Assembly (NCBI RefSeq): GCF_013167455.1 | Contig: NZ_CP038328.1 | Origin: Escherichia coli O157:H7 | Lineage (GTDB): Bacteria; Pseudomonadota; Gammaproteobacteria; Enterobacterales; Enterobacteriaceae | Length of the DNA stretch: 64,000 nucleotides | Strand: one strand, 5' to 3' | Shown: one piece after another, positions 1-38,341 of the stretch | Layout of the letters: each line of letters opens with the position of its first letter | Numbering within the stretch: the stretch's first letter is position 1 | Made by a program: the position numbers and the translations under genes | Notes under the pieces: model-generated | Databases searched by the model: none | What the model was told of the DNA's origin: nothing | What the model saw: the letters and a program-made list of their open reading frames with translations, nothing else

Positions 1-3000
1 ACTCAATAATCTCAGCCCAACTCTCATCAGTCTCTGGTACTGCCTCTGGCGTTGCCGAAACTTTAGTGTCAACGCTTTCCTGCGGTAAATGCACGGCTTT
101 ACGGCTGGTAAAGGTCATATCCGGCAGGAACTGTAACAGGTTTACCAGTCGCCAGAAGCCATTGAGTCCCGCTTCATAACCGTCATCCTGCGTATAGCGA
201 TCGTCAAAACAGATATGCAAACGCAGCCAGCTGCGCATTTGTGCGACGCTGGTCGTCGGTTTAATGGCTTGTTGTGGTAACACCGAAGCCAGCTCAATAA
301 ATTGCTGCGATGAGTTACAGCTATCGAGTAAACCACCAAAGACAAACGGTTCGTCTGGCAAAAGCTCTGCTAGCCGCCAAGCTGGCGCGTTTTCCTGCAT
401 TTCATAGGCATACTTTTGTTTCGTTCCCGCGTCCTGTGACTTCTTCACATCCAACCACACCCAGGCATGTGCAGCAGCCATTCTCTGCCATAACTGCGTT
501 CTTCCGCCCGGATCGGCGAGATAATCCAGCAGCAGTGCAAAACTGTTGCGTTCCCGGAACGACGCTTCAAGGGCCGCAAAGTTGGTATCATGAAACAGGT
601 TATAAAACTTAGGCTGTTTCATATCCGGGTTATGCCCAAGTCCCAGGACATCCTGAACATGTTTAAGCCCTGGCTCTTTGAGATCGGCCCACGTGACTGT
701 CCACACCCAGAAATTACCGCTATCCCGAATCGCCTGGCGTTTTTGCACATCCTCTGCGACGCTATTTTTGTGGAACGCAAAGCCATCAAGGAAAATAGCC
801 ACCGGTTTAATGGCATCAGACTGCATAAGCGGATATAGCACGTAATCCGGGCGACAAGGGATCCCCACCGCCTCTTTAGCGCCTAAATCCACCTGAGCTT
901 TAAGATGCCAGCTCATCATCGGTTCGCTGCGGGTGTTAATAATCCACCCAGCGCCCTGATGCGCGTAACTGCGACTGACAATCAGGTTTTTATTTTCTTG
1001 CAGGCAGCTAATAAACCGTTTTTCCAGCTCACTGCCCATCATGGCTTCGAGGGAAATGTTTTTGATGGAATCAATTACCCGTATCGAATCTCTTGCCTGC
1101 AAAATTTTCGCCAGCAAGAGACGCGCCTGATCGCGGGAGACATACTTCATGCGCCCACGGTCACGGTAAGCGTAAACGCAACGATAACAACCATCTTTAT
1201 GCGTATCATTGTTGCAACTGCATTCCACTATTGCCTGATAGGCCAGTTCAAGTAATTTCAGCAAATTGTCGGGAGTGCGCATCAGTTCTTTAAGAGAACC
1301 AGTCCCCCCCGGGACGGTATCGTAAATCACCAGATACTGCCGCCAGGATTCGCCTTCATTTTCCGGCTCGCGGTACACAACGCCTTTCAGGTGATCGACA
1401 TTCCCCTTGAAGTAATGTTTAAGACCGAGCTGGATCGCCGCCCCAAGAGAAGCCTCCACGACACGGTCATTACTGTAACTGCTTACCGGGAGCAGAATAC
1501 GCAACGCTTCTGACTCCAGCTGGCGATAGAGGTAGAGATAATCTTCGAACTTCGCCTTTTCCGGTTCCGTGCGATATTTGCAGCTCAAATCATGACGTGG
1601 TTCATGATCGCGAGGACGCTGCACCATGCCGCACCCGAGGCAAACTTTAAACCCGGTTCGCTTCTTCGCTTCTCCGGCAATCATCAACTCATTGGCATCA
1701 TCCGCCATTTTGCCGAAGTTGATATCCCGCAGGGTGACTTTGCTTAAAAATTCAAAACCAAACGGAACTTCGCCTTCCTCAATCGCGTATGCCGCCGATA
1801 CATCTTCTTTTTCGAAACTAACCAATAGCTGACGCTGGAAGAAAGCAGGTTCACGGCTGTCGCTCTCGTCGCTGATCTGGCTATCACGTGCGCTGGCGCG
1901 GGCATAAACCTGGCGAAGTTTCAGCAGCGTGGTTTTTTGTCCGGCATCGGCCCACCCCGGTGTGCCACATTTCGGGCAATATTTATGCTGGTCGCCCGTC
2001 TGGTCGATATTTTCGCTGTAGTTACAGTGGCTACAGATACGCCAGTTCTCCGGCTCAGAGACCTTCAGGTCTATCTGCTCAATTTCAACTTTATGCCCAC
2101 CGGCATAGAAATTATTCAGCGGAGCCAGCTCAGCCAGCGCCGTTGATGCCGGGCGTTCATATTCGAAAGTGGTGTTTTGATATTCACGTGCTTCCCCGCC
2201 TTCTTTACGCCGCCAGAGCACAGAACGTAACGTAATACCGGCTTCCGGGAAGGCGTAGTTAGGCAGCAGACCTTCATCCGTGAGGAAATTCAGCGTTTGC
2301 TTATTGTTGATTTGATTGACCAGCGCCATCAGCGCCTGCCGTTCCGAAGTTAACTCGCGCATATCGCTATCAAAGTTTTGATCGCGCGGCGCGTTCTCCA
2401 GTTTATCGATACTGCGCTTGAGTTTATCGATGCGTGAGCGCAAAGATTTGCGATCTTCCACCAGCAGTTTTAACGCTTCTTCGATACGCTGCACCAGCGA
2501 GCGTTGTCCTGGCGCGCCCTGAAGATAAGACAACAGCTGTTGGCGAGTTTCTGCGGCAAGATCGGGGAAGATTGCCGTAAATTGCGCAGCAATCTCCGCA
2601 TGATGCTGTTCGATATATCGCAGTAAGTTATACGGAAAACCCGATTTACGCCCGAACTCCAGCTCATCCAGCATCTGTTTGACGTTTTTACAGATAGCGG
2701 ATTCTGGTACACCGGTTTTCACCCAGTTATCCATACAAAAAGCTGCCAGCTGGCGTTCGAGAATAGCCGTTGCATTAAGGAAGACGCCAGGAGCCTGCAC
2801 CTGGCCCTGCATCATCTCCAGTGGTTCTTCAAAGAAAAACTGATCGTGCGGGTTCCCTTCTGCCACGGTAATGTTTAACGCGTTACCATCTTTACGACCG
2901 GCGCGACCAATACGCTGCAAGTAGTTGGCCTGAGCAGGTGGGACAGAACAGAGTAAAACGGTGGAAAGATCCCCAACGTCAATACCCATCTCCAGCGTCG

Positions 3001-6000
3001 GTGTTGCCGACAACAGGTTGATATTCCACGGTTGGTTGCCGCGGTAGAACGATTTTTCGGTGACTTCGCGATCTTCACGGCTAAGCAGCCCCGTGTGTTC
3101 TGCGCCCTGTACGCGCGCGATGTCCATGTTCTCCCAACGCCAGGTCGCCGTATTGTCGACTTCCTGGTAACGACCTTCACAACGTAAAGAGAGACAAGGC
3201 GCATTACGCCACTGCCAGCCTTGATCGGCCGGAGCCCGGACAACCTCACGGCAACATGAGCAATTAAGCTGAACGACGTCACGGCTCACCACCAGCGCCG
3301 AAGGCACCAGTCCCCAGGCTTCACGCCCTTTGGTGTCAAAATCTTTTACTACTCCGGCTATTTTCAACGCCGTAAACAGGCGTCGTAACACTGTTTCCGC
3401 AACGCTACTGATAAACAGATTATTGCCGTTACTCAGCGTGCGATTGATCCAATGCTGATACCAACTGGGGTTAGACTTCGCGCCAATCAGGCGATGGAAA
3501 CCATTAATTTTTTCAAACGACGCATAAGCCGGTTTACGCGTTTTCGGACCGATAGAAGGCATATAGCGCGAGGTACGCTCTTTTTGCGTCATCATAAAGG
3601 TCGTGCCATCACGGCGATAACTTTCGAACGCCGGATGCATAACGGCCCCGGCCTGGCGTTGATACCAGATAACCCCCAGCGCCAGGTGCGCTACCTGCTC
3701 GACGCTCACACCAGACATCTCATCACCCAGCTCTTCACAAAGCTGTTGATGCAGGGCGGTAATTGCCGGATTGAAGCGATCTTTATCCACTCCGGCAACG
3801 GCATAACCGGTGGCTTCCAGCGTACGTCCGATACGCGCGCGCAGGGTAAATTCGCTGTACACCTCCCAGTCGAGGCGCAGGGAAACCAGCTCCGGCAGAT
3901 CGGAGTTCTCCGCCAGTTTGCCTTCATTTTTCAGCGTCTGATAATCATTCAGCCACTGCATATTTGGTGCGATGACGTTTGCTGCAAAATGAGCATCGTC
4001 CGGTGAACGTTCACGCGTTTGTTGGCAAACACGCGCCGCGAACGCATCCAGCGGTAATGTCTCTTTTTCGCTAAGAACACTGGCGATTTGCCCACGAATC
4101 ATCAGCGGCCAGGTACGGGCAGTAAAGAAGCTGGCACGATGCGCGGCGTCTTGTACCGAGTCAGAAAACGTAATCAGCTTTTTATGTTCGTTGAACTGGC
4201 TGCCATAAAGCTGGTGAATCATCACCGCCGACAGACTGGCAGCCCGTGACCCCAGAATCGAAATCCCCTGTTTGCTGTTGCAGTACGGGCATTCATTAGC
4301 AAACTCCAGCTCGTCCTTACGCTCTTTGAGCATATCCGGGATCAGTACCTGCAACAGTTCCGTATGACCGCAATGTCCACACTGGACGCTGGACTGTCGG
4401 TTCAGTTTCAGACAGGTAGGACACAGTTTCTGGTGTGCGCCACTGACCGCTTTTTCGTTGTTATCCGGGAAAGCAAGGACGATGGAGCGCCCTTTTTCAA
4501 AGAACTGGCGATAAATGCCGTCGAGGTCTGTTTCCAACTGAACGCTTTGCCCATGACGCAGGCTGGCCCAGCCAGTTGCGTGGCAGTCACGGCAGTGGAT
4601 AACCGGCAAATAGTGTTCGCGATCTTCCACCGCCACATCATCGGCAAACACCAGTCGGGGCGTTTTCGCCACGCTGGCGACCAGACGACGCATCTCACGA
4701 AGCCACAACTGGGAGCGCAGTTGCACAAACGGCAGCACCGGACGCGCTTTCTTCGCCTGGAGACGTTTTTGCCGATCGTGTTCCGTTTCCGGTACTTCGA
4801 GACGTGCCTGCGCGATCAGTGCCAGAATGCTTTGCAGCACGCGTCGGGCATGGTCGGCGCTTTCTGCCAGCATGACCTGGAGATTTTCCAGACACTCTCG
4901 TTCAGAGAGGATCCCGCCTTGCAGATCATGGAGTAAGACATGCATCACGCTGTGGCGGCGTAACAGTGACCCCAGCGCAATACGCTTTTCACGCCCGTCG
5001 TCGCTCTCCAGATCGTCCGGGAGTTGCAAGTCGCTGTCGGGGAACCACAAAGGGATTTGCCCGTTAAGATACGCTACCGGGGTAGCGTAACTCTGCGGGT
5101 CCAGGGCCGAAGCGACCTCCGGCCCCGGATACTGACTGTACGCAATGGCGTAATTCTGCAAGTACTCCGCTGCCGTGTAGCGATCTTCGCGAATAACGGC
5201 GTCATCGGTAAACGGCTGGTCAAAGATTGTTTTTGCGTAATCGAGCAGTTGCCCCAGTTCGTCGCCGACGGTAGCTGATGTCCCGACGCAGGCGAATCGT
5301 TGGTTATCCACACCTATGTGATGCTTCAAACGTCGCACCAGACAGGCCAGATCCGACCCTTGCGCGCCATCAAACGTATGCAATTCATCCACGACCAGGT
5401 AACGCAATGAACCGGGCTGGTTGTAACGCCAGAGCGGCTGATCGCCAGGGCGCATCAGCAGGTAGTCGAGCATTTTGTAGTTGGTCAACAGGATGTCCGG
5501 CGGGCTTTCGCGCAGCGTGTGCTTACAGGTAATGACCTTTTCTGCCGACATTTTTTTGCTGGGTTCGATTTCGCTGTCGCCGACAAACAGGCCGACGGTC
5601 ACCTTGCCATGCAGTTGTGGATCGCTGGCGATGGTTTTGGCGAAACGGCTGGCCTGATCGGTTGCCAGGGCGTTCATCGGGTAGATGATAATCGCTTTAA
5701 CCCCGGCTTGTGACGCGCCCGCGCAGTGGTTGAGCAGCGGGAACATAAAACATTCTGTTTTACCGGAGCCGGTACCGGTTGCGACCAGCGTCGGCTGTGG
5801 CGCGTCGCTTCCCAGACGCTGAAATGCCCGGGCCTGATGCGCGTGCGGCGGGAACGGCAGCGTCAGATTAGGGAAAAAATTCAGCGGTAAGTCACTTTTA
5901 CGAAACGGCAACTGGGCGGAAAGGTATGGTCCTTTCAGCAGCGTTTCCGGCTGGGCCAGAAATTGCTCCAGCATTGAGACATTATCGTTATTCTCACCGT

Positions 6001-6088
6001 TAAACAGCGGGCTGTTTAGCGGGAACGCCGCCCGTAAAAAGGCGGCAACGCTGTCGGCGACCTGCCGACTGACAACGGACGGCAACAT
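1..6088 (-). CDS. Giant DExH-box helicase with C-terminal Cys-cluster/DUF1998-like region (DruE / DrmA-DrmB-like); partial, runs off window start (>2029 aa)
   Basis: Absent from ORF track because no stop codon lies inside the window. ATG at 6088-6086 overlaps the TGA of the upstream gene (TGATG). Hand translation of this minus frame starts MLPSVVSRQVADSV. Walker A TLVATGTGSGKTECFM was checked codon by codon at 5791-5744; DELH box, QRIGRAGR motif and Cys cluster ECSCNNDTHKDGCYRC (~1215-1168) were read by eye. The track reports no >=60 aa ORF in this minus frame anywhere in 1-6088, while the other two minus frames have several, consistent with one continuous open frame. Confidence 0.7.
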   Translation of the reverse strand, partial: MLPSVVSRQVADSVAAFLRAAFPLNSPLFNGENNDNVSMLEQFLAQPETLLKGPYLSAQLPFRKSDLPLNFFPNLTLPFPPHAHQARAFQRLGSDAPQPTLVATGTGSGKTECFMFPLLNHCAGASQAGVKAIIIYPMNALATDQASRFAKTIASDPQLHGKVTVGLFVGDSEIEPSKKMSAEKVITCKHTLRESPPDILLTNYKMLDYLLMRPGDQPLWRYNQPGSLRYLVVDELHTFDGAQGSDLACLVRRLKHHIGVDNQRFACVGTSATVGDELGQLLDYAKTIFDQPFTDDAVIREDRYTAAEYLQNYAIAYSQYPGPEVASALDPQSYATPVAYLNGQIPLWFPDSDLQLPDDLESDDGREKRIALGSLLRRHSVMHVLLHDLQGGILSERECLENLQVMLAESADHARRVLQSILALIAQARLEVPETEHDRQKRLQAKKARPVLPFVQLRSQLWLREMRRLVASVAKTPRLVFADDVAVEDREHYLPVIHCRDCHATGWASLRHGQSVQLETDLDGIYRQFFEKGRSIVLAFPDNNEKAVSGAHQKLCPTCLKLNRQSSVQCGHCGHTELLQVLIPDMLKERKDELEFANECPYCNSKQGISILGSRAASLSAVMIHQLYGSQFNEHKKLITFSDSVQDAAHRASFFTARTWPLMIRGQIASVLSEKETLPLDAFAARVCQQTRERSPDDAHFAANVIAPNMQWLNDYQTLKNEGKLAENSDLPELVSLRLDWEVYSEFTLRARIGRTLEATGYAVAGVDKDRFNPAITALHQQLCEELGDEMSGVSVEQVAHLALGVIWYQRQAGAVMHPAFESYRRDGTTFMMTQKERTSRYMPSIGPKTRKPAYASFEKINGFHRLIGAKSNPSWYQHWINRTLSNGNNLFISSVAETVLRRLFTALKIAGVVKDFDTKGREAWGLVPSALVVSRDVVQLNCSCCREVVRAPADQGWQWRNAPCLSLRCEGRYQEVDNTATWRWENMDIARVQGAEHTGLLSREDREVTEKSFYRGNQPWNINLLSATPTLEMGIDVGDLSTVLLCSVPPAQANYLQRIGRAGRKDGNALNITVAEGNPHDQFFFEEPLEMMQGQVQAPGVFLNATAILERQLAAFCMDNWVKTGVPESAICKNVKQMLDELEFGRKSGFPYNLLRYIEQHHAEIAAQFTAIFPDLAAETRQQLLSYLQGAPGQRSLVQRIEEALKLLVEDRKSLRSRIDKLKRSIDKLENAPRDQNFDSDMRELTSERQALMALVNQINNKQTLNFLTDEGLLPNYAFPEAGITLRSVLWRRKEGGEAREYQNTTFEYERPASTALAELAPLNNFYAGGHKVEIEQIDLKVSEPENWRICSHCNYSENIDQTGDQHKYCPKCGTPGWADAGQKTTLLKLRQVYARASARDSQISDESDSREPAFFQRQLLVSFEKEDVSAAYAIEEGEVPFGFEFLSKVTLRDINFGKMADDANELMIAGEAKKRTGFKVCLGCGMVQRPRDHEPRHDLSCKYRTEPEKAKFEDYLYLYRQLESEALRILLPVSSYSNDRVVEASLGAAIQLGLKHYFKGNVDHLKGVVYREPENEGESWRQYLVIYDTVPGGTGSLKELMRTPDNLLKLLELAYQAIVECSCNNDTHKDGCYRCVYAYRDRGRMKYVSRDQARLLLAKILQARDSIRVIDSIKNISLEAMMGSELEKRFISCLQENKNLIVSRSYAHQGAGWIINTRSEPMMSWHLKAQVDLGAKEAVGIPCRPDYVLYPLMQSDAIKPVAIFLDGFAFHKNSVAEDVQKRQAIRDSGNFWVWTVTWADLKEPGLKHVQDVLGLGHNPDMKQPKFYNLFHDTNFAALEASFRERNSFALLLDYLADPGGRTQLWQRMAAAHAWVWLDVKKSQDAGTKQKYAYEMQENAPAWRLAELLPDEPFVFGGLLDSCNSSQQFIELASVLPQQAIKPTTSVAQMRSWLRLHICFDDRYTQDDGYEAGLNGFWRLVNLLQFLPDMTFTSRKAVHLPQESVDTKVSATPEAVPETDESWAEIIE

Positions 6089-9000
6089 CAGGCGCTCTCC
6101 TTATCTTGTGCAAAGAACGCCCAGGCCACTTTGTAGTCATCTTCGCGATCTGGCTTGATAAACGGAGCCTGCCAGGTGACGGTACGGCGCTCACCTTCGT
6201 CGCTGCGGGTATAATCATCAAAGGTGACGCTGACGGTACCGGTTTTAAGATGTTTGACATCATCCCAACCGATAGCTTGATCGGTGCAGTCACCGCCGGT
6301 CCACTCCGGGCTGTCGACGTTAAAGACAAAGCCGTTTTTCAGGTCAGCTTTACGCGCGGTGCGAGGCAAGCCAACGCCCACCAGCCCTTTGCTTGGGGTA
6401 AAGATAATGCGACCGTTTTGATCGTACCAGGTATCCGCTTCGTACTGGCGCATCACCGGGAACTGAACGCGATAAATGGTAAGCAGCTCTTCGAGAGTTA
6501 ACCCCAGCGCCTGCGCCACCAATACGTCGATTTCCACCAGCGCCTGACGACGACTGTAGTCAGAGCGTAAAGCGCAGTTACGCTGCCACTCTGGGGTCAG
6601 TTTGGCGAAGAAATCCTGGGGGAGCTGCGGGAGATCGCGGCTCCAACGCTGGGTGTTGAAGTCTGGGGTGTAGCAGGATTGCCAAAGGCCAGCATATACA
6701 TCATTTACAGAATTTAATGATAATACTAAGCAGTATAATAATGCCTTTTGTCTCGGATTGAATAATACGTATGAGAAACCATCAAGCATCTGATGTAAGT
6801 TTGCCTTGCCAGTAGATTTACAAATAAAATCAAAAGGTAAAGAAAAACACATACCTGAATGTTCGAGTAACAGATTCTGTGAGCTATAGCAGTAAGAACG
6901 TACTGCGTTCATGTGACTTATTTCTGGCGGATAAATAGCACTAATTAGTGTACGTTCCCCCGATTGAGCCAACATGGCTCTGATAGCTAAGCGATAATAA
7001 TCTGTTACCTTCTTCGGTTCATCTTCAGCCAGTTCAGTCCATGTAACGCATGGAGTACGTTTTGCATACTCCTGTGCATCACATGCCGGAATGTAGTTAG
7101 TGCGCGGCAGATAGTCGTCAGGCAGAGTTAGCAAGTCCAGGCAGTCATAATCGCTGTTAAGCGTACAGTTTTCGCGCGGAGTCTTGTAGAACGGCGTCCC
7201 AACAAAGAAATGAGGGCCAGACAGTACCCATTGTGATGAATCTTGAGGGAATTGAGTCTGCCGTAAAATTGTCCCATCCCTCTGAGCATATGTTTCATCG
7301 AACATAACCGTTGAAAAATACTGCCCCTGCAAATCACCTAATCTATTCGGCTGATTAGCAAACTTTTCCAGTACAGCAACAAGTTGTTTAGCATGTAAGG
7401 CTGGCAAACGTGCCTGCCAGGCTGGCGTTCCTTCGCTGTCATATAGACGAGCAAATAATTCTAGCTCATGAGTGGCGATACTTATTAATCGAGAACGGTG
7501 GCCAGATGTGTTCCATACAACTTTTAATTTTCCCTCGCTCTCAATCTCGTCTTTGAGACCGGGAATGTCCCCACTGCCAGAATGTTCAAAACATGCATCA
7601 ATAGTTTGCGGAGCATACAAATTAGATATATGTTCAAATCCCACTGTGCTAGGGCTAGCAGAATAAATATTGCTGCTAAACTTCGCATGGTGATCAACTT
7701 CAACAAACAAATTTAACTCATTCTGAAACTGAAAATGCGCCCTCAGCCTCGGATATACCGCCGCACGTAATTGCCCGCCTTTCGGGTCATCATAAATCCC
7801 TTCCGGGTGCAGGAAACCTGCCACGCCTTTCTGCGCCCCTAATCGCCAGGCCTGCGGCAGAAAGCATTTATACAAGTTGGTCTGCACCCCGCGCAGTACC
7901 GGGTAGTTCTGCTGCGCATTCAGGAAGTTTTGCATCCCTTCACAGCCTTCATACTCGCTGCGCCAGGCCGCTTCCAGCGCCGGGATCTGGTTAAAGGTAT
8001 CAATACGCAACGTTGCCAGCTTCGAGGCGCTCAGCTTACGCAGCACAAATTCCGGCTCGTAATCACCCAGCACGCCCGCTTCCTGCCATTCCACTTTCAG
8101 CCACGGCGGGTTTCCGAGCATCAGGTCAAAACCGCCGCGCTCGGCAAACAGGTCGCAGAACTCCAGATCCCAGTGGAAGAAACGGTGCTGCTTTCTCAGG
8201 GCATCGACAATCGCCAGACGCGGCAAATGACGGAACAACACCTCGGTTTTCAGACGACCAGCAACAGAAAACAGCGAAGACTCTTCTCGCAGCAGGCCTT
8301 CTTCGGCAAACAGATCGCCGGTGGTGTGCTCCGCAACTTCAGTGACTTTTTCCGTGATTACAATCCCGTCAAGCAGGGTTTCAATCTCAAACAACCAGGT
8401 GCCGCGATCCGGTAGCTCATCGGCTTTGTCGATCGGCCAGAACCACAGCGCGCACCAGTAGTCCATTACCCAACGCAGCTTCTGGTAGGCGCTGTTATCT
8501 TCAAGACGACCGCTAAAGGTTTCATCTTTACTGCTCAGCGAAGAACGCGTCTGCTCGCTGTTTTCTGCCGGCCACACCGGGTAGCTGTCGGCGGTTTTCA
8601 GACGTTCTGCTTTAAGTTGCTGGCGATAGGTGTTCCACAGTGCTTCCACCTTTTCGCTGATACGCTGCACATCAGCAATCTCATGCCCGGCAAAGCTTTT
8701 AATAAACTCTTTGCGCCAGCTGTCCAGCGCTTTGAAGTCATCCGGATAACGCTGCTTAACAGTTTTATCGCTGTAGTTAGCCATACCGCCGTCGGGCAGC
8801 AGGAAGTGGAAAATCTGCGTCTCTTCACGCGGCGTGTTCATCGCCAGTTCGACCGGCTCGCTGTTAAGCCAGCTCGGATCTTTGGCTTTTTTGTAGGTCA
8901 GTTCGCTCTTGTTGAACACCTGACGGCGCGCGCCCACCAGCGAGTTACCGCAGTGCAGCTGGTAACCAAACCACGGTACAAACGCATCGCCACTAATGGC

Positions 9001-13883: not shown

Positions 13884-13951
13884 CGGTTTTTCTGTCTATT
13901 TGGGGCAGTGGCGGTAACGTCATCCTGAAAAATGTGGCGCGGCACACTGCG

Positions 13952-13987
13952 ATAAAAAAGAGGGCCTTAAAGATATCATGAAGGCCC
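13952..13987 (-). terminator. Rho-independent terminator downstream of the DruE-like gene
   Basis: On the minus strand: GGGCCTT stem, 12-nt loop, AAGGCCC, followed by CTTTTTT (plus-strand A-run 13954-13959). Confidence 0.5.
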
Positions 13988-14106
13988 CCGGCAAAGTGAC
14001 AAAATGGGAGGGAATGCGCATAAATTGCGCATGATTTTCAAACAAAAATTATTAAAAAGTGAGCTGGGTCAACTCCCCTGGAAGATATCCCCAGGGGAGC
14101 AATTAT

Positions 14107-17100
14107 TTATCCAGCGATAATATAACTCCTAAGGTCATTACCCGGGGCAACAGCTCGCGCTCGCGTGTTTGCCAGCCGTTCAACTTGCTGCGGTACTCGC
14201 AGGGCAAAATCAAAGAAGGTATCTTCAATACAGCGCCAGTAGCTAAGCCCCATGTCGAGCAGGACATAATGCTGACTGCCATCGCTGAAGGTGACTGTCA
14301 GTTCTCGTCCATGCTCCGTACTCTGGTTATCCCCCGTTAACCAGCTAATTGCTCCCGGCCACGCAGGCCCCAGATATCCTTCTTCAAGTAAAGTGGTCAC
14401 AACCTGCTGACGATCTTCCTCATTAAGCCACGCGTTATAGAGAGCGTCGTGTTGGCGAGAGTTGTAATCCAATTTTTTGACGCAAACAGTGAGGCTGGCG
14501 CGTTCCGCCATTCCCTGTTCAACCAGCTCGGTTAAGATTTCACCTAACAAACGCGCCGTGAATGGGCTATTAAGATAACGATCGCTGTACTCAACATGCG
14601 TTATCTCTTTGTGGCGGGTAAATGCCTGCTTCCAGCCAGCGTGCTGTTGCGTGACTAACGACCAGAAACGCGAACCAAAACCTTCCAGCGGCCCGTCCAG
14701 TTGTTCACAGAGATTGATGCGCACCGCCCCGGTGGGTAAGGCGGGCAGTAAATCTTCTGCACTTAAGGTCTGACCCGAGAAGGTTTTTCCGGACGTTCCT
14801 TTAAGTGTCACTACTGGTGAAGACGCACTTTGTCCCCATAATTCACCAGGTGCAACGGTAGCGCTGTCGTCTGCGGCCCACTGTTGGCTTTGCCCTTCGC
14901 GAGTCACCTGCGCAAGCCAGCGCCCCTTTCCTTGCATGAGCTGCGCAGTGGCAATGGATTTCACTTGTAAGCGACCTCCCGGCATCGCCGCCAACGCGGA
15001 AAGCTGATGTCTGGAGCTATCAGTTAAGTTTGCCAGCGGCGTGGCCACCAGCAACTCAACATTCCCACCGGAGGAGGCAAACTGGAGCAACTCTTTAAAT
15101 AATGGCCATTGGGCAAAGTCCCACTGTTCCTGCGGCCCCGCAAGAACCAGCGAGCAGGAGTCATAAATCTCGCTGTTCAGGCATTGCGCAATACGTAAAC
15201 TCAGAGGGTTAGTTTCAACCCGGCTACCATCGCCGAAGTACTGATATTCTGGCGCGAGGTTAAGTCGCTGCAACCGTACATTGGTAAGCAGGGTTAATGC
15301 ATGGTGACGATCTAATCTGTTGACATAATGCTGACTGTCGTAGCTGAGCAAGCAGTGGTGACAGAATTTATCGCAACTGCAATCGAGCAATTTTCTGGCG
15401 TAATTAAAGACATCAGCCCAATGGTCGATCAATTGCACTGCATAACCTGCACCACCCGCATTATTGTCGTAAATGAAGATGGAATATCCGGTATAGCCAT
15501 TGATATCGCGCGCTTGCTGCGTCGTCACGCCCAGCTCAGTATTTTCGATACCCAATTTATGCGCTAACCCTTCACGCAAAGCGACCGCAAGGGAACGCGC
15601 GGCAACCTCATCACGGATCAACAGGCCATTATCATCATTGAGTTGCAGCTCAACCATATCTGTACGACTGCTATATCCCAACCACAGATCTTTATGCACA
15701 TGACCGTGGCACAATTTATTGCTCCCCTGACGATCGTTACTGCCCCCTCGCAACAGGTAATGCGTATTTTCCCTCTCTGGGTTCTTTAGATTTTCAGGGG
15801 TACGCTGGGGTTGAGTTTGAGATTCTGCCCGACCACATGAGAGGCAAATTGCGTAGCCGTGCCCAAATTCCCCTTCACTGAAGTGGAACAATTCCCCACT
15901 ATGGCTAAAACGGTAACGTCCTAGCCCAGCATCGGGTAAAGAAACCCACACCGAAGACGGTACAAGAACACGTGGATCTTTCCAGGGAAGTTGTGCAGGC
16001 ATGGATACATCATTATGTGCCTGATAACGAATATCTGTCGCAAAACCAACAGGCTGTAAATAACGCTTCACATCAAGTTGCTGTATATCCGCTTTGCAGT
16101 GACTACATTCGACAGGATGGGTAGTACTGGTTGCCCCCGCACCACATTTACGGCAATGCCAGAACCACGGAATATGATGATCGCCTGACAGCTCCTGCCC
16201 GCTGGCAAGCACCTTGCCAAGCATAATGCCCGAGGAACGATATACTTTTCCGCCCAATACCACATCTGCACCAGGCGCATACTCGCGTAATGCTGTAGGC
16301 AAATCACGGCTGGGCAATTTTTCAATACGACGAGAAAAGCTTTCTCCCCCTTCATTAGGGTCAGCCTGAGTGGCTTTTATTGCGCGACGTTTTTCCAGCT
16401 CATCTGCCGTCAGATAATTGAAATTGACTACGCCAACCGGGAAACCATGCCCCGGCAGGAACGCTTCACTAATGAGTTTAGAAAACAGATATGCACCGCG
16501 ATAATCACGAAGCTGATAAGCGATGGCTTTACCTGCTGGTGTTTCTTCCCACGCGCTGTTATCCGCCTTCAACGCTTCGATATTTTCCAACAGTATCGCA
16601 AGTTGGCTTCTCCAGCGGATATCAACCTGCTGCATCATTGCTTGTGTGCGGGTCAAGAGCTGGGTTGCCGTCAATGACATCAGTACGGTTCCCTGAGTAA
16701 GGCGTTTAAGTTTATCCGCCAGCTGATCGGCCTGGTGATTTAACCAATGGAGAAAACGAAGACACTGGCTCTCATCACCTTCAAAGAACCATTTGCAACT
16801 CAGTTTTGTCGCATCAGGAACTTCAGCTCGTAAAAACAGACCTAAAACCAGGGCATTAACATGTCGTTGAACAATACTACTGCTCCCAAAACGAACCCGT
16901 GGCGCACTGGCAGTAGTGTTGAACGCCCAGAGGGGGTCTTTGAATACCTCCATTCCATGCGCCGTGTTTTTACATAACGTAATGGCAGCAGATGCACTCT
17001 CTCCACGACGCCCCGCGCGACCTGCACGTTGCAAATAATTTGCCGGCGCTGGAGGAACGTTGTTCATTGCCACCAAACTCATACCACCAATATCCACCCC

Positions 17101-20100
17101 CATCTCCATGGTCGTGGAACAGTTCAGCACATTAACTTTGCCTGACTTAAATTGTTTTTCATTAAACTGGTTCTGCTCAGGCGTTCTCTGCGCAGAGTGT
17201 TCCTCCAGACGATACCAGCTATCTTTCAGGGCCAGTCGGTCGCTGCGAGTAGACCATAATCCTTCCTCGCGGGCATGTTGAATCAGCGCATTACTTTCCA
17301 GCCACTCCAGACGTTCTTCTCGGGCGATTTCTCCACCACCAGACAAACGCCAGTGACGTACAGGAAGCTCAGGCATTTCAATCAACACTGCTTTTTCAGG
17401 TGCAATTTCTTTGCTACCCGGCAAATACGGAGAGTATCCCAGCAACGTGACGTCTAACGCACGTCGAGTATAGGGGCAACGCCACACTTGCTTTGGACTG
17501 TAAAATTCAGCTTGTTGTTTAATATCCAGCTGATAACCCGACTCAAACTGACGTAAGCAGGGTCGAATTGCATCCCAGACCTCAATCATTAAGTGGTTAA
17601 CTAACGATTTCCAGTGAGCCTGCTCAGGTTGTATTGCCGGAAAGACTGCGATTAATAGCTTAATGACCCGGTTATAATGGCGATCGCGTATTTGTGGCCA
17701 AAGTTGATCACGTTTCTGCCCTTTGTTTTTTTTATCTGGCCCCTGGAGCATTTTTACCGGGAAACGTGCCCCCATCCAGCGAGGGTATTGCTCGTTTTCG
17801 TAAAAAACGGCACTGTTTTCACGGATAAAGAAATCAAGAGTAATCTTCAATAAATTACGCCATTCCGCTAATTGCTTATCGGGATCGGGTAATAATGTCT
17901 TCCAGTCCTGCGGGCAGGTTGTAACTTTATCAATGAATGGATAGTGAATGGCTACCAGACCCAGACTTTCGAGGGTCCAGGCATTTTTAGGGCGGCGACC
18001 AAACTCGCTGTATAAACAAAAATCTGCAAACTGTTGTTTAGTAAGATCAAGCCCAGACAATTCTTTAAAACTGCCTCTCATTCTATCGGCAAGGTCCACA
18101 CTGCCAACCAGCTGTTCAGACAGCGTTTGCCATGACATGGTTTTCTTCTGCTGATTGCCAGAGTTAGCCTGAAGTATTTGCATCGCTTCAGCATGCTCCG
18201 TGCTTAAGGAACTCACCATCGGCTCAATAATTTTAAGTGCCTGAATGTCCGTCGGGCTAAGCTCCTCATTCGCAGCCATCGCTTTTTTCAGCGCGTCGAT
18301 GGAATTTTTTAAAGGGAGGACAGAAAACTGGCTAATAACTTTCTCTAACAGTGCACAGTGTGCCGGGCTGAGTTTTGCTGAAGGCTCTGTAATATTTGCC
18401 AGCTCCTGGTAACAAAGAGCTCGCAACGTCGCTTTATCGGCATCCTGCTGTAAGCGGGCTGAAATGCGAGCGGTACCCTGACGCGAATCCGTAAAGGTGA
18501 GCAAGCGTCGACCATTAAACGGTCCTAACTGCTCTTCTCTTGTTTGCGGTAATGGAGAAAACTCCAGCAGAGTAGGAATAATTTCATTTAAAAAAAAGGG
18601 CGCGCCGAGCCGAAGCGGACGGAATAAAGGATTATTTTTCCGTTGAGTGTCACCACAGCAAACACAAGCAAAGGAGTTATTGCGTCCCTCACCTCGAGAT
18701 TCCGGTCTTAACAGGTTTATTTCATAGTGCTTTTGCGCTTCACTATCAATTTTCCCCGCCGTCGTTTCTTCCAGTGAAATGATATATTTTTCACCATCGC
18801 TCGCAATCAGACGATCAAATTGAGAGTTATTGTCTAATTCGTCGTTGTCTTCATCTTCAGAATAAACATCTACATCAAGAGCAAACTCATCCACTTCGGC
18901 AGCGGCTGGTTGCGCTACCAACCAGTTCGTTCCATCACCGCGCATCTCCTCTTTGGCAGACAAATAAGCTGAACCACACCCGGAGCAACGTAAAACTTCA
19001 AATACCGGCGCTCCACAGTCACAATATTGGCGCTGCTCAAACCATACCTGACCAAATGGCCAGTCACTCTGATTTAATTCATGTGCTTTATGTGAGCATT
19101 GTTTGTTTGAACATGCCCATAGACCCGCCAGTGTTCTGATAAACCCATGCATACGTAATGGCGTAAAAGCCAGTTCACCTTCTCGCGATCTTGCCATTAG
19201 ATCGAGGAGTTGCAGTAGCTCACGGTGATTAATATCTGGCCAGGTTCTTCTGGCAACATTGAGCAACTCACTCAAACGTACTGCCTGCCGTCCGGGATGA
19301 GTTAACGCCTGACGCAATTGCTGGGCCACACGGTAATGACAAAGCTGTTGGTAAAGATCCTGAGGGCTCAGGGATTTAAGAGAAGTTAAAGATGTGGGGT
19401 ATTCATGACGAATCAGCGACTCCGATACCCGCGGTATTTGTCGATAACCGCGAACCACTTTGACATCACGTTCTGTAACGCCCGCGAGATCAGCGACAAA
19501 TTTAGCAAGCTCCTTATTACCTTCAGGAGAGTCTTCACCAATAGTGGCAGAGGTCGCGATAATCTGCACAGGTTTATCTGTGCCGGGTCCAACATTGAAA
19601 GCCTGCATAACACGACGTAAAAGCAGCGCTAACTCAGCAGCCTGAGAACCAATATAACTATGGGCTTCATCCAGGACGATATACTTTAACATCCCCTGAG
19701 ACTTTTCGATGATTGGGGCATCTTTACGACGAATCAGCATATATTCCAGCATGGTGGTATTCGTCACCATGATGGAAGGTGGTGCTTCATAAATGGCTTC
19801 CCGACTCAAAGCTTGTTCAGGTACTTTCAACTGATCTTCCTGAATTTCGTATTTGGTATGCCGGGTTTCGCCATTATATAGCGCGAAGCGTATTTTCCCC
19901 TTAAATCCGCGCGTCCATTCGCGAAGCCGCTCCTGTTGGCTGTTAATTAATGCATTTAACGGATACAAGAAAATAGCTTGTGTCCCTGTTAGTGACTGGC
20001 GGGTCGATTTTTGCTGACGAATAAGATCTTCCAGAACCGGTACCATAAAGCATTCTGTTTTCCCGGATCCCGTACCGCTGCTCACTAACAAGGATTTTTT

Positions 20101-20430
20101 GTCTTCCAGAATCGTTCGCCACGCAGTAAGTTGATGACGAAATGGCACTGGCGCTTTGCTCAATGCATCAACCAGCGGGCTGGAGATCAGCTTGTCCCGC
20201 AAATCCTCCATTGTTTCATCCGCAGGCATCCAGCCGAATGTACTTTCGAATACCGGGTCTGCAAGCAGTGACCCCTCCTGACCGGGAGGCTGAAAATATT
20301 GTGATTCCAGATAATGAGTCAACGACTTGCTCCGCAATGCCAACTGACTTACCACCGACCTCACCGCACGCTGATGAAGCTGATTTAGAAGTGGCGCATA
20401 ATGCAGTTGCTGAACGTCCATCAATGACAT
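14107..20430 (-). CDS. druE: DruE-like giant DExH helicase with Zn-finger/DUF1998-like region (2107 aa)
   Basis: Track ORF. Walker A LLVSSGTGSGKTECFM, DEAH box IVLDEAHSY, multiple CxxC pairs, C-terminal Cys cluster LDCSCDKFCHHC. ATG overlaps the end of the upstream 1119-aa gene (10-nt overlap, with a second in-frame ATG in a TGATG arrangement). Confidence 0.75.
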   Translation of the reverse strand: MSLMDVQQLHYAPLLNQLHQRAVRSVVSQLALRSKSLTHYLESQYFQPPGQEGSLLADPVFESTFGWMPADETMEDLRDKLISSPLVDALSKAPVPFRHQLTAWRTILEDKKSLLVSSGTGSGKTECFMVPVLEDLIRQQKSTRQSLTGTQAIFLYPLNALINSQQERLREWTRGFKGKIRFALYNGETRHTKYEIQEDQLKVPEQALSREAIYEAPPSIMVTNTTMLEYMLIRRKDAPIIEKSQGMLKYIVLDEAHSYIGSQAAELALLLRRVMQAFNVGPGTDKPVQIIATSATIGEDSPEGNKELAKFVADLAGVTERDVKVVRGYRQIPRVSESLIRHEYPTSLTSLKSLSPQDLYQQLCHYRVAQQLRQALTHPGRQAVRLSELLNVARRTWPDINHRELLQLLDLMARSREGELAFTPLRMHGFIRTLAGLWACSNKQCSHKAHELNQSDWPFGQVWFEQRQYCDCGAPVFEVLRCSGCGSAYLSAKEEMRGDGTNWLVAQPAAAEVDEFALDVDVYSEDEDNDELDNNSQFDRLIASDGEKYIISLEETTAGKIDSEAQKHYEINLLRPESRGEGRNNSFACVCCGDTQRKNNPLFRPLRLGAPFFLNEIIPTLLEFSPLPQTREEQLGPFNGRRLLTFTDSRQGTARISARLQQDADKATLRALCYQELANITEPSAKLSPAHCALLEKVISQFSVLPLKNSIDALKKAMAANEELSPTDIQALKIIEPMVSSLSTEHAEAMQILQANSGNQQKKTMSWQTLSEQLVGSVDLADRMRGSFKELSGLDLTKQQFADFCLYSEFGRRPKNAWTLESLGLVAIHYPFIDKVTTCPQDWKTLLPDPDKQLAEWRNLLKITLDFFIRENSAVFYENEQYPRWMGARFPVKMLQGPDKKNKGQKRDQLWPQIRDRHYNRVIKLLIAVFPAIQPEQAHWKSLVNHLMIEVWDAIRPCLRQFESGYQLDIKQQAEFYSPKQVWRCPYTRRALDVTLLGYSPYLPGSKEIAPEKAVLIEMPELPVRHWRLSGGGEIAREERLEWLESNALIQHAREEGLWSTRSDRLALKDSWYRLEEHSAQRTPEQNQFNEKQFKSGKVNVLNCSTTMEMGVDIGGMSLVAMNNVPPAPANYLQRAGRAGRRGESASAAITLCKNTAHGMEVFKDPLWAFNTTASAPRVRFGSSSIVQRHVNALVLGLFLRAEVPDATKLSCKWFFEGDESQCLRFLHWLNHQADQLADKLKRLTQGTVLMSLTATQLLTRTQAMMQQVDIRWRSQLAILLENIEALKADNSAWEETPAGKAIAYQLRDYRGAYLFSKLISEAFLPGHGFPVGVVNFNYLTADELEKRRAIKATQADPNEGGESFSRRIEKLPSRDLPTALREYAPGADVVLGGKVYRSSGIMLGKVLASGQELSGDHHIPWFWHCRKCGAGATSTTHPVECSHCKADIQQLDVKRYLQPVGFATDIRYQAHNDVSMPAQLPWKDPRVLVPSSVWVSLPDAGLGRYRFSHSGELFHFSEGEFGHGYAICLSCGRAESQTQPQRTPENLKNPERENTHYLLRGGSNDRQGSNKLCHGHVHKDLWLGYSSRTDMVELQLNDDNGLLIRDEVAARSLAVALREGLAHKLGIENTELGVTTQQARDINGYTGYSIFIYDNNAGGAGYAVQLIDHWADVFNYARKLLDCSCDKFCHHCLLSYDSQHYVNRLDRHHALTLLTNVRLQRLNLAPEYQYFGDGSRVETNPLSLRIAQCLNSEIYDSCSLVLAGPQEQWDFAQWPLFKELLQFASSGGNVELLVATPLANLTDSSRHQLSALAAMPGGRLQVKSIATAQLMQGKGRWLAQVTREGQSQQWAADDSATVAPGELWGQSASSPVVTLKGTSGKTFSGQTLSAEDLLPALPTGAVRINLCEQLDGPLEGFGSRFWSLVTQQHAGWKQAFTRHKEITHVEYSDRYLNSPFTARLLGEILTELVEQGMAERASLTVCVKKLDYNSRQHDALYNAWLNEEDRQQVVTTLLEEGYLGPAWPGAISWLTGDNQSTEHGRELTVTFSDGSQHYVLLDMGLSYWRCIEDTFFDFALRVPQQVERLANTRARAVAPGNDLRSYIIAG

Positions 20431-37127: not shown

Positions 37128-38018
37128 TCAGGCTGCCAGATCATCGTTTCCGATGGAAGCATAATAAGCTTTTTCTGCTTCTGCCGGAGGAGTATGGCCC
37201 AGCCTTCCCAGCAATCGTCGATTGTTATACCAGTCCACCCACGTTAGTGTGGCCAGTTCCACTTCTGCACGGTTTTTCCAGCTCTTACGGTGTATTACCT
37301 CCGCTTTGTAAAGACCATTGATGCTCTCAGCCATCGCGTTGTCATACGAGTCGCCTGTACTCCCTGTTGATGCCAGTAATCCGGCTTCTTTTAGTCGCTC
37401 CGTATAGGCCAGTGACACATACTGAGAGCCTTTATCGCTGTGATGGATGGTGCCAGACGGACGACGGGCCCACAACGCCTGCTCCAGCGCATCCAGCACG
37501 AATGTCGTTTCCATAGACGATGAGACCCGCCACCCCACGATGTATCCGGCAAACACATCAATGATAAACGCCACATAGACGAAGCCCTGCCATGTGCTGA
37601 CGTAAGTAAAATCAGCCACCCACAGCTGGTCAGGTCGTTCTGCCACGAACTGACGGTTTACGCGGTCGCCTGCGGCAACGGCTTTCCGGCTGATGGTCGT
37701 ACGGACCTTTTTACCCCGGAGAACACCGGCAAGTCCCATAACCGCCATGAGACGTGCCACTGTACATCTGGCCACCCTGATTCCTTCCCGTAACAACTGA
37801 CGCCAGACTTTACGCACACCGTACACCTGATGATTTTCATCGTATACGCGCTGTATCTCTCTCTTCAGCCAGTCGTCGTGCTGCGCACGGGCACTGCGTT
37901 TATCCGGATGATGTCGCTGTTGCTGACAATGGTAATACGTTGACGGGGCAATATGCAGTTCGCTGCATACCGGTCCGACCCCGTACTGCTCACGCAGCTT
38001 ATCCAGCAGTGGCATCAT
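37128..38018 (-). CDS. IS629-like transposase OrfB (DDE catalytic domain)
   Basis: Track ORF; DDE region ...WVADFTYV...[11 protein letters not shown]...[16 protein letters not shown]. Confidence 0.85.
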
Positions 38019-38341
38019 TTTTTCCAGAGGCGGTCGAACTCCGCCTTCGCAAAATAAGCGGAAGCCTGGCGAAGGATATCGTTACTGCGGCGCAGTTCAC
38101 GATTTTCACGTTCCAGCTCTTTCAGACGCTGACGTTCAGCGCTGGTGAGCCCACCATCACCGCCCCCGGTATCCCGCTCATGCTGGCGAACCCAGACACG
38201 CAGAGTCTCCGGCGTACAGCCAATCTTTGGGGCAATGGAACAAATTGCCGCCCACTGTGAGTCATATTCATCCTGACTTTCCAGAACCATACGAATCGCC
38301 CGCTGACGGACTTCGGGGGAAAAACGAGTATTTTTAGTCAT
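38015..38341 (-). CDS. IS629-like transposase OrfA (108 aa)
   Basis: Track [25 protein letters not shown]...; HTH plus leucine zipper, matching IS629 OrfA from memory. Confidence 0.85.

Follow-up and report, generated by a model that had tools for sequence, protein, structure and literature searches.

Two 2025 preprints have named the genes z5899-z5902 of Escherichia coli O157:H7 ARMADA type II (armABCD) and have shown that this system acts in synergy with Druantia III; both treat druHE and armABCD as separate operons, and the ARMADA preprint identifies tRNA-Leu(CAA) as the site at which the island integrated. The same preprint describes a clone, pARMADA, for which the primer FN1701 ends in ATAATTGCTCCCCTGGGGATATC, a sequence identical to positions 14106-14084 of the DNA analysed here and corresponding to the first 23 bases of the spacer between the two operons. 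The other end of the insert joins the Plac side of pBeloBAC11, with Plac reading antisense, and the authors describe the gene cluster as being 'under its native promoters'. This clone protects BL21-AI against 13 phages, with vector read-through possible from the side opposite Plac, and a druEH deletion that leaves the whole spacer in place keeps ARMADA defence. The spacer, its hairpins, their conservation and the linkage to armABCD are analysed in neither of the 2025 ARMADA preprints, and no transcript mapping of the spacer is given in the Z5898 paper or in three Druantia/ARMADA preprints.

The window examined here, the whole 64-kb stretch of DNA, corresponds to O-island 172 of E. coli O157:H7 and is 100% identical to O157:H7 chromosomes. 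Both operons have the minus strand as their coding strand, in the order druH, druE, a 223-nt spacer and armABCD, and the limits originally proposed for the spacer agree with the ends of the two flanking ORFs (Table 1). Of 5,426 complete E. coli genomes, 527 contain the same 423-nt stretch around the spacer, which also occurs in a few plasmids of E. coli and Klebsiella. The upstream operon had been called Druantia-like from its sequence and proved to be Druantia type III, with full-length matches to the PADLOC models for both genes of the pair (DruH3, 2554.9 bits; DruE3, 2184.9 bits). The description of the downstream operon as DISARM-like had to be given up. Its genes matched the PADLOC DrmD and DrmMI models only in part, and ArmA scored 349.7 bits against the NCBIfam model DISARM_DrmD, for which the cut-off is 610, with only about residues 104-405 aligning; DISARM class 1 was consequently rejected, and the operon is ARMADA type II, a relative of DISARM and not DISARM itself. 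The gene order is that expected of ARMADA II, namely a SNF2/RapA-like armA, a PglX-like methyltransferase (armB), a YprA-like helicase (armC) and a UvrD-like armD, an assignment based on the domains of ArmA and ArmB, on RefSeq and plasmid annotation for armC and armD, and on the name used in the preprints. The gene for a large helicase, which lies past the methyltransferase gene on the minus strand, extends beyond the edge of the window.

Table 1. Positions of the features discussed, numbered from the first base of the window unless another locus is named.
Feature	Position	Strand	Basis or remark
druH	20421-23780	-	Druantia III
druE (Z5898, 2107 aa)	14107-20430	-	ORF list, PADLOC DruE3 full length, RefSeq annotation
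druE stop codon TAA	14107-14109	-	ORF list, sequence
Spacer druE/armA, 223 nt	13884-14106	-	Between the two ORFs
Hairpin 1	14072-14100	-	Perfect 9-bp inverted-repeat core
P1, promoter-like site	14046-14072	-	TTGACC 14072-14067, 15-nt spacer, TAATTT 14051-14046
Palindrome ATGCGCA-attta-TGCGCAT, 7-bp hairpin	14014-14032	-	Sequence and fold
C-rich run CCCTCCC, unpaired	14012-14006	-	Next after palindrome
Terminator-like hairpin and U6	13954-13989	-	Stem 13989-13981 / 13968-13960; 12-nt loop; U6 13959-13954
P2, extended -10-like motif TG-a-TATCTT	13970-13978	-	TG 13978-13977, hexamer 13975-13970; inside the terminator-like loop
Most conserved block, CCCTCTTTTTTATCGCAGTG	13945-13964	-	U-run and start of predicted 5' UTR; putative function
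Predicted armA 5' UTR	13884-13953	-	GCAGTG 13950-13945 can pair with CACTGC 13910-13905
18-codon ORF in spacer, MKAPGKVTKWEGMRINCA	13978-14034	+	Overlaps opposite-strand ORF; frame/length not kept in relatives
18-codon ORF in spacer, MRNLCAFPPILSLCRGPS	13976-14032	-	Overlaps opposite-strand ORF; frame/length not kept in relatives
armA (Z5899), SNF2/RapA-like helicase, 952 aa	11025-13883	-	First armABCD gene
Methyltransferase, 1644 aa	6088-11022	-	Next after armA
ALIL frameshift pseudoknot of IS3-family element	37944-38060	-	
tRNA-Leu(CAA)	40415-40499	-	
Ysr276 antisense RNA match	46514-46708	-	
Two naRNA4 (REP-derived) matches	47542-47713	-	
Two-gene module	L002:5007-11944 (E. coli 1218KP); L009, L010, L018 at about 811-7746		
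Two-gene module, further loci	L003, L004, L091, L096, L108		

Read along the minus strand, the spacer contains an inverted repeat that starts 7 nt past the druE TAA, a TTGACC that abuts the repeat, an A+T-rich stretch, a palindrome, CCCTCCC, a 9-bp stem followed by U6 and, after a further 70 nt, the armA ATG. All three structures in the original prediction exist and had been placed correctly to within 2 nt: the palindrome lies exactly where it was said to (14014-14032, ATGCGCA-N5-TGCGCAT), the hairpin given as a terminator at 13952-13987 is present as a 9-pair stem with U6 within 2 nt of those coordinates, and the repeat reported at 14071-14099 is indeed a perfect 9-bp repeat, but one that starts 2 nt away. 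The estimate that only some 70 bp remain for a downstream promoter was also right, the distance from the U-run to the ATG at 13883 being 70 nt. A consensus scan showed no enrichment of promoter-like sites, and within the spacer it flagged as terminator-like just one weak 6-bp stem, at 14075-14061, overlapping hairpin 1. The spacer as a whole folds with z = -3.6. Perfect 9-bp inverted repeats with loops of 3-12 nt gave 19 hits (about nine loci) in the 64-kb window compared to 3.0 in shuffled sequence, and about 0.01 is the number expected per 223 nt; the occurrence of such a repeat in the spacer far exceeds chance. Two simple explanations of the spacer were discarded. It is not a dispersed repeat of the REP/ERIC kind, as it matched homologous spacers only in 5,426 E. 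coli genomes and plasmids, and it does not appear to encode small proteins, as the 18-codon ORFs on both strands shift frame, change length or vanish in related spacers.

Related loci were obtained from an ArmA scan of species-representative genomes, which gave 80 loci, and from a metagenome scan anchored on the armA start region, in which the O157 allele was left out by design and which added 24 distinct upstream sequences, two of them chance hits. Directly upstream, across a spacer of 223-226 nt, DruE was encoded in the loci of Escherichia, Siccibacter, Serratia, Yersinia and an Enterobacter MAG. In Enterobacter wuhouensis, Mangrovibacter and Citrobacter the same spacer again lay before ArmA, there preceded by an unrelated module of two genes. 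All 527 E. coli genomes carry the spacer with the druE 3' end on one side and the armA 5' end on the other, and the three were never found apart. Seven E. coli genomes have a diverged spacer (75% identity) after the two-gene module, with ARMADA replaced by IS debris, and a further 119 keep only the first 58 or 102 nt of the spacer. Conversely, three metagenome contigs (L090, L092 and L097) keep the proximal 105-170 nt only, the homology beginning at the TGATATCTT motif in L092 and extending over the proximal 150-170 nt in L090 and L097. Taken together, these comparisons indicate that the spacer as a unit belongs to armABCD and travels with it, whichever module is upstream.

The genes found upstream of ARMADA II in the three truncated loci were a divergent pair encoding dynamin-like GTPases (L090), a DUF3987 (P4-like) gene on the other strand (L092) and an integrase 0.9 kb away (L097). 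The two-gene module encodes proteins of 1569 aa and 743 aa and takes the place of druHE directly upstream of the spacer and ARMADA II. It was also seen in metagenome contigs and, on its own, beside nanC/fim in 126 complete E. coli genomes. Searches of PADLOC, Pfam, NCBIfam and PDB sequences gave no match to the module, which does not resemble DruH or DruE either and is a candidate for a new defence module or an alternative partner of ARMADA.

The inverted repeat (CTCCCCTGG/CCAGGGGAG; arms at 14091-14099 and 14073-14081, loop of 9 nt) forms the core of a longer structure, hairpin 1, which as RNA has 12 pairs and a loop of 5 nt; its folding energy is -21.2 kcal/mol (z = -4.4), a value that none of 200 shuffles equalled. 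Hairpin 1 has been retained by 32 of the 35 related spacers, with energies of -13 to -26 kcal/mol and in 17 sequence versions. There are three main arm sequences, CTCCCCTGG, CTCCCCCAC and CCCCCTGCC, each fully complementary to its own partner, and the loops differ. Covariation was tested on a gap-free alignment of nine versions, in which 97.5% of the cells were paired compared to 85.4% in shuffles; neither this value nor the covariation score was reached in any of 500 shuffles, and five of the nine pairs had changed on both sides. As a control, sliding the partner by 1-3 columns brought pairing down to 56-76%. In one variant (L100) the helix is held by three U-G wobbles and so can pair only in the sense-strand RNA. 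Judged by these compensatory changes, hairpin 1 is a conserved RNA stem-loop under selection; alternatively, its pairing could be kept without selection, through template-switch repair of quasi-palindromes. No U-tract is found within about 2 nt of the stem, which is followed by UGACCCAGCUCAC, with the first U-run 13 nt further on, and hairpin 1 is therefore not a canonical terminator. It is missing in exactly three loci, those of L090, L092 and L097, where ARMADA heads its own unit, and is present only where a co-directional gene precedes ARMADA. Because it is absent when there is no such gene upstream, we read it as a 3'-end structure of the upstream transcript, an RNA-level role being the most likely one.

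In the half of the spacer nearer to armA, the greatest conservation of the whole spacer is in cATGaTAtCTTTaaggCCCTCTTTTTTATCGCAGTG, which includes TG-n-TAnnnT. In all 16 representative spacers the TGnTA and CTTT columns do not vary, even in two loci of the Aeromonas type for which there is otherwise hardly any alignment. In the O157 sequence this motif is TGaTATCTT (P2), which has the TG at -15/-14, the A-11 and the T-7 of a sigma-70 extended -10 sequence, and is not preceded by a -35. Chance alone would produce TGnTAnnnT about 0.2 times on each strand of a 223-nt sequence, so that the weight of the motif rests on its conservation, itself seen within a block that is wholly conserved. On sequence evidence of this kind P2 is the best candidate for the core promoter of armABCD, with the presumed transcription start following from it. 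The armABCD promoter is probably not to be sought within the 70 nt after the terminator-like element, as the best conserved candidate is inside the loop of that hairpin. A second promoter-like site, P1, begins with the TTGAC that abuts hairpin 1 and is invariant wherever hairpin 1 is present. Its PWM score was 8.8 in O157 and 11.3 in three of the four b-type genome loci scanned (TTGACC-16-TATCGT), and in the Serratia/Yersinia type the PWM scan found no usable -10 for it.

The Vibrio-type loci of Vibrio agarilyticus (L017) and Enterovibrio (L019) have a spacer of about 140 nt between Druantia III and ARMADA II. The P2 motif is replaced in both and a TAATAT/TACTAT hexamer occupies the position of the U-run, so that the position of the promoter may differ between lineages. 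A long hairpin (CAGCAAAAUAUCGAU / AUCGAUUUUGCUG) follows the hexamer, and the two species differ in it by a compensatory change. In the enteric loci, the possible helix in the predicted armA leader (GCAGUG/CACUGC) shows one compensatory pair in the Serratia type (GCAGTA/TGCTGC), which is a weak lead only, and a structured 5' UTR was rejected, as RNAalifold gave no consensus and the fold energy was ordinary (z = -0.42). No Shine-Dalgarno sequence could be recognised in the stretch before the armA ATG (13884-13900, minus strand; AGACAGAAAAACCG). This stretch is invariant in enteric relatives, and the CGAUGAA at the armA start codon has its complement in a conserved UUUAUCG with which the predicted leader begins.

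The terminator-like element consists of nine pairs, one of them G-U, and has a folding energy of -15.1 kcal/mol (z = -2.8), which 4 of 200 shuffles matched. A stable G+C-rich stem with a U-tract directly after it is what an intrinsic terminator requires, but the loop of 12 nt exceeds the typical 3-8 nt, and because it is longer than 8 nt the simple terminator scan had missed the hairpin. Nor is the stem kept in orthologous loci. Compared on a 42-nt segment over 32 related spacers, it gave -14.0 kcal/mol for O157, -14.6 for a mosaic spacer (L088/L112) and -8.5 for a Klebsiella plasmid, with values of 0 to -2.7 in 27 of the 32 spacers scored, and yet the loop, the 3' arm and the U-run are almost invariant in sequence among the relatives. 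As far as this comparison goes, then, what is conserved at the terminator-like element is sequence and not structure, and the stem is specific to the O157-type allele. The mosaic spacer was seen in two metagenome contigs (250 nt upstream of armA) and has Siccibacter-like ends and an O157-type middle, which indicates recombination within the spacer; in this middle part the palindrome has two G-U pairs.

Several other explanations of the spacer were considered. The original prediction had suggested that the downstream operon may depend on read-through or on a compact promoter. A promoterless armABCD, relying for its expression on read-through from the druHE promoter alone, would fit with the co-directional arrangement of druHE and armABCD, with the lack of a terminator between the operons in most alleles and with the lack of a strong -35/-10 pair adjoining armA. 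However, the spacer and armABCD alone, placed against Plac in a single-copy BAC, are sufficient for defence; as this clone begins with the first base of the spacer, armABCD probably has a promoter of its own, and the activity of pARMADA together with that of the druEH deletion makes dependence on read-through alone unlikely. ARMADA II also follows, in the contigs sampled, genes that are divergent or unrelated, and there keeps the proximal part of the spacer only. The compact promoter is therefore supported by the constructs and the truncated loci, and the same evidence leaves exclusive read-through hardly credible. Hairpin 1 could alternatively have its role in the DNA, serving as a junction for recombination or for cassettes in the exchange of upstream modules before ARMADA. 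The homology of druHE-linked and two-gene-module-linked spacers starts within a few bases of hairpin 1, E. coli genomes with the two-gene module alone break in or just after it, and a mosaic of the spacer exists. Nevertheless, we consider this quite improbable: the breakpoints are scattered (58 nt, 102 nt, full length) and resemble deletion remnants and not a site-specific event, no recombinase gene adjoins, the loop of hairpin 1 has no conserved core sequence and the U-G wobbles of L100 favour an RNA structure.

The palindrome had been put forward as a possible regulator site, a proposal that turns on its conservation in related loci. As the operator of a transcription factor controlling the downstream operon it would have in its favour a perfect dyad of 7 + 5 + 7 nt that folds more stably than shuffled sequence (-9.2 kcal/mol, z = -3.9; 2 of 200 shuffles as good) and that has a -35/-10-like pair on one side and the conserved promoter block on the other. 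Against this, 7-bp inverted repeats are only about twice as frequent in the 64-kb window as in shuffles (47 compared to 24.5), common enough that the palindrome alone is just mildly unusual, and apart from the O157 type, the Klebsiella plasmid copy (L005) alone has a perfect dyad. In other spacers one or both arms are altered non-symmetrically, leaving 3-5 Watson-Crick pairs plus G-U pairs and mismatches, as in L097 (4 Watson-Crick, 2 G-U, 1 mismatch), and the palindrome is missing from L090 and L092 and from the c-type (Serratia/Yersinia type) spacers, even though the flanking operons of the latter are the same. The dyad symmetry is thus not conserved in orthologous spacers, and no regulator gene is annotated within the Zorya-Druantia-ARMADA block. 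Since the palindrome is degraded or absent in relatives, a conserved operator is unlikely, and we regard control of armABCD through this site as very unlikely. The same elements might instead function as RNA, the O157-type allele being a small RNA or attenuator cassette. As a small RNA, the transcript would start from P1 at about 14039, include the 7-bp hairpin and CCCUCCC, and stop at the terminator-like hairpin and U6, with a length of about 87 nt; as an attenuator, these elements would make up a long armA leader with a regulated terminator. The order of elements does match the standard layout of a small RNA (promoter-like site, 5' hairpin, C-rich single strand, terminator-like hairpin), the Rfam mmgR/suhB model aligns end to end (13947-14037, minus strand), over a stretch that takes in the hairpin, CCUCCC, the terminator and the U-run, and the mosaic spacers keep the terminator stem with a G-U pair improved to A-U. 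On the other hand, Rfam, searched over the whole window with gathering thresholds and over the spacer with permissive E-values, gave the spacer no match but this one, and at 25.1 bits it falls below the gathering threshold of RF00519 (41 bits), a family of the alphaproteobacteria. Of the 32 scored spacers, 27 lack the terminator stem, the Serratia type has no -10 for P1, a search of the window gave no target with extended complementarity to the C-rich stretch, and no small RNA has been reported for OI-172 in the literature searched. A small RNA or attenuator is consequently unlikely. Doubtful to a greater degree is the fuller proposal that the O157-type spacer encodes a lineage-specific regulatory RNA or attenuator made up of P1, the 5' hairpin, a CCCUCCC seed and a terminator loop that holds the armABCD promoter. 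If this were true, transcription from druHE or P1 and initiation at armABCD would interfere with each other, and the interference would set the expression ratio of Druantia III to ARMADA II, which are synergistic.

We consider it somewhat probable, on balance, that the spacer is a conventional composite boundary, made up of a 3' stem-loop, a promoter belonging to armABCD and the terminator-like additions of the O157 type. Under this composite arrangement hairpin 1 would form the 3' end structure of the upstream transcript, where it may protect against exonucleases or act as a pause or weak stop. For its transcription armABCD would have, in the proximal half of the spacer, a promoter of its own, for which TGaTATCTT (13978-13970) is the best candidate, and a start from P2 would give the armABCD mRNA a leader of about 80 nt. 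In the O157-type allele, a terminator-like hairpin and U6 have come to surround this putative promoter, with the perfect 7-bp hairpin and the -35/-10-like pair upstream of it; these additions may partly insulate armABCD from druHE read-through, and would be specific to the allele and not part of the conserved core. For the design of deletions, reporters and heterologous constructs, it matters that the 223-nt spacer belongs to armABCD and carries, as it appears, the armABCD promoter, and that the terminator-like hairpin is found only in the O157-type allele. [quoted passage not shown] The spacer adds no new principle of gene regulation, and the more interesting by-product of its analysis is the two-gene module that replaces druHE.

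Each part of the spacer can be compared with a known kind of element. The 13989-13954 hairpin shares with the intrinsic terminators of E. coli a G+C-rich 9-bp stem, a U6 directly after it and a place on the coding strand downstream of a long operon, and differs from them in its 12-nt loop, in a stem that is not conserved in orthologous spacers and in having within the loop the best promoter candidate for the next operon; hairpin 1 differs from intrinsic terminators in having no U-tract at all. In the RF00519 (suhB/mmgR) family the order of hairpin, CCUCCC motif, terminator hairpin and U-run is the same as in the spacer, but the spacer scores below threshold, the family belongs to another bacterial class and the layout is not conserved in orthologous spacers. 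The absence of a usable -35 is typical of the extended -10 class of promoters (TGn-TATAAT). The P2 candidate likewise has none, and it has the TG one base upstream of a hexamer with T-12, A-11 and T-7, the difference being that this hexamer matches the consensus at only four of six positions (TATCTT) and that of the relatives at three (TACTCT, TACCCT). Hairpin 1 most resembles the REP-like and other terminator-less stem-loops that stabilise 3' ends, in being a strong stem-loop a few bases past the last stop codon of an operon and in having its pairing conserved through compensatory and wobble changes, and it differs from the REP-like ones in being single-copy and not dispersed, with its matches in E. 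coli genomes confined to homologous spacers and its function putative. The spacer is thus a real but ordinary, previously undescribed instance of well-known kinds of element.
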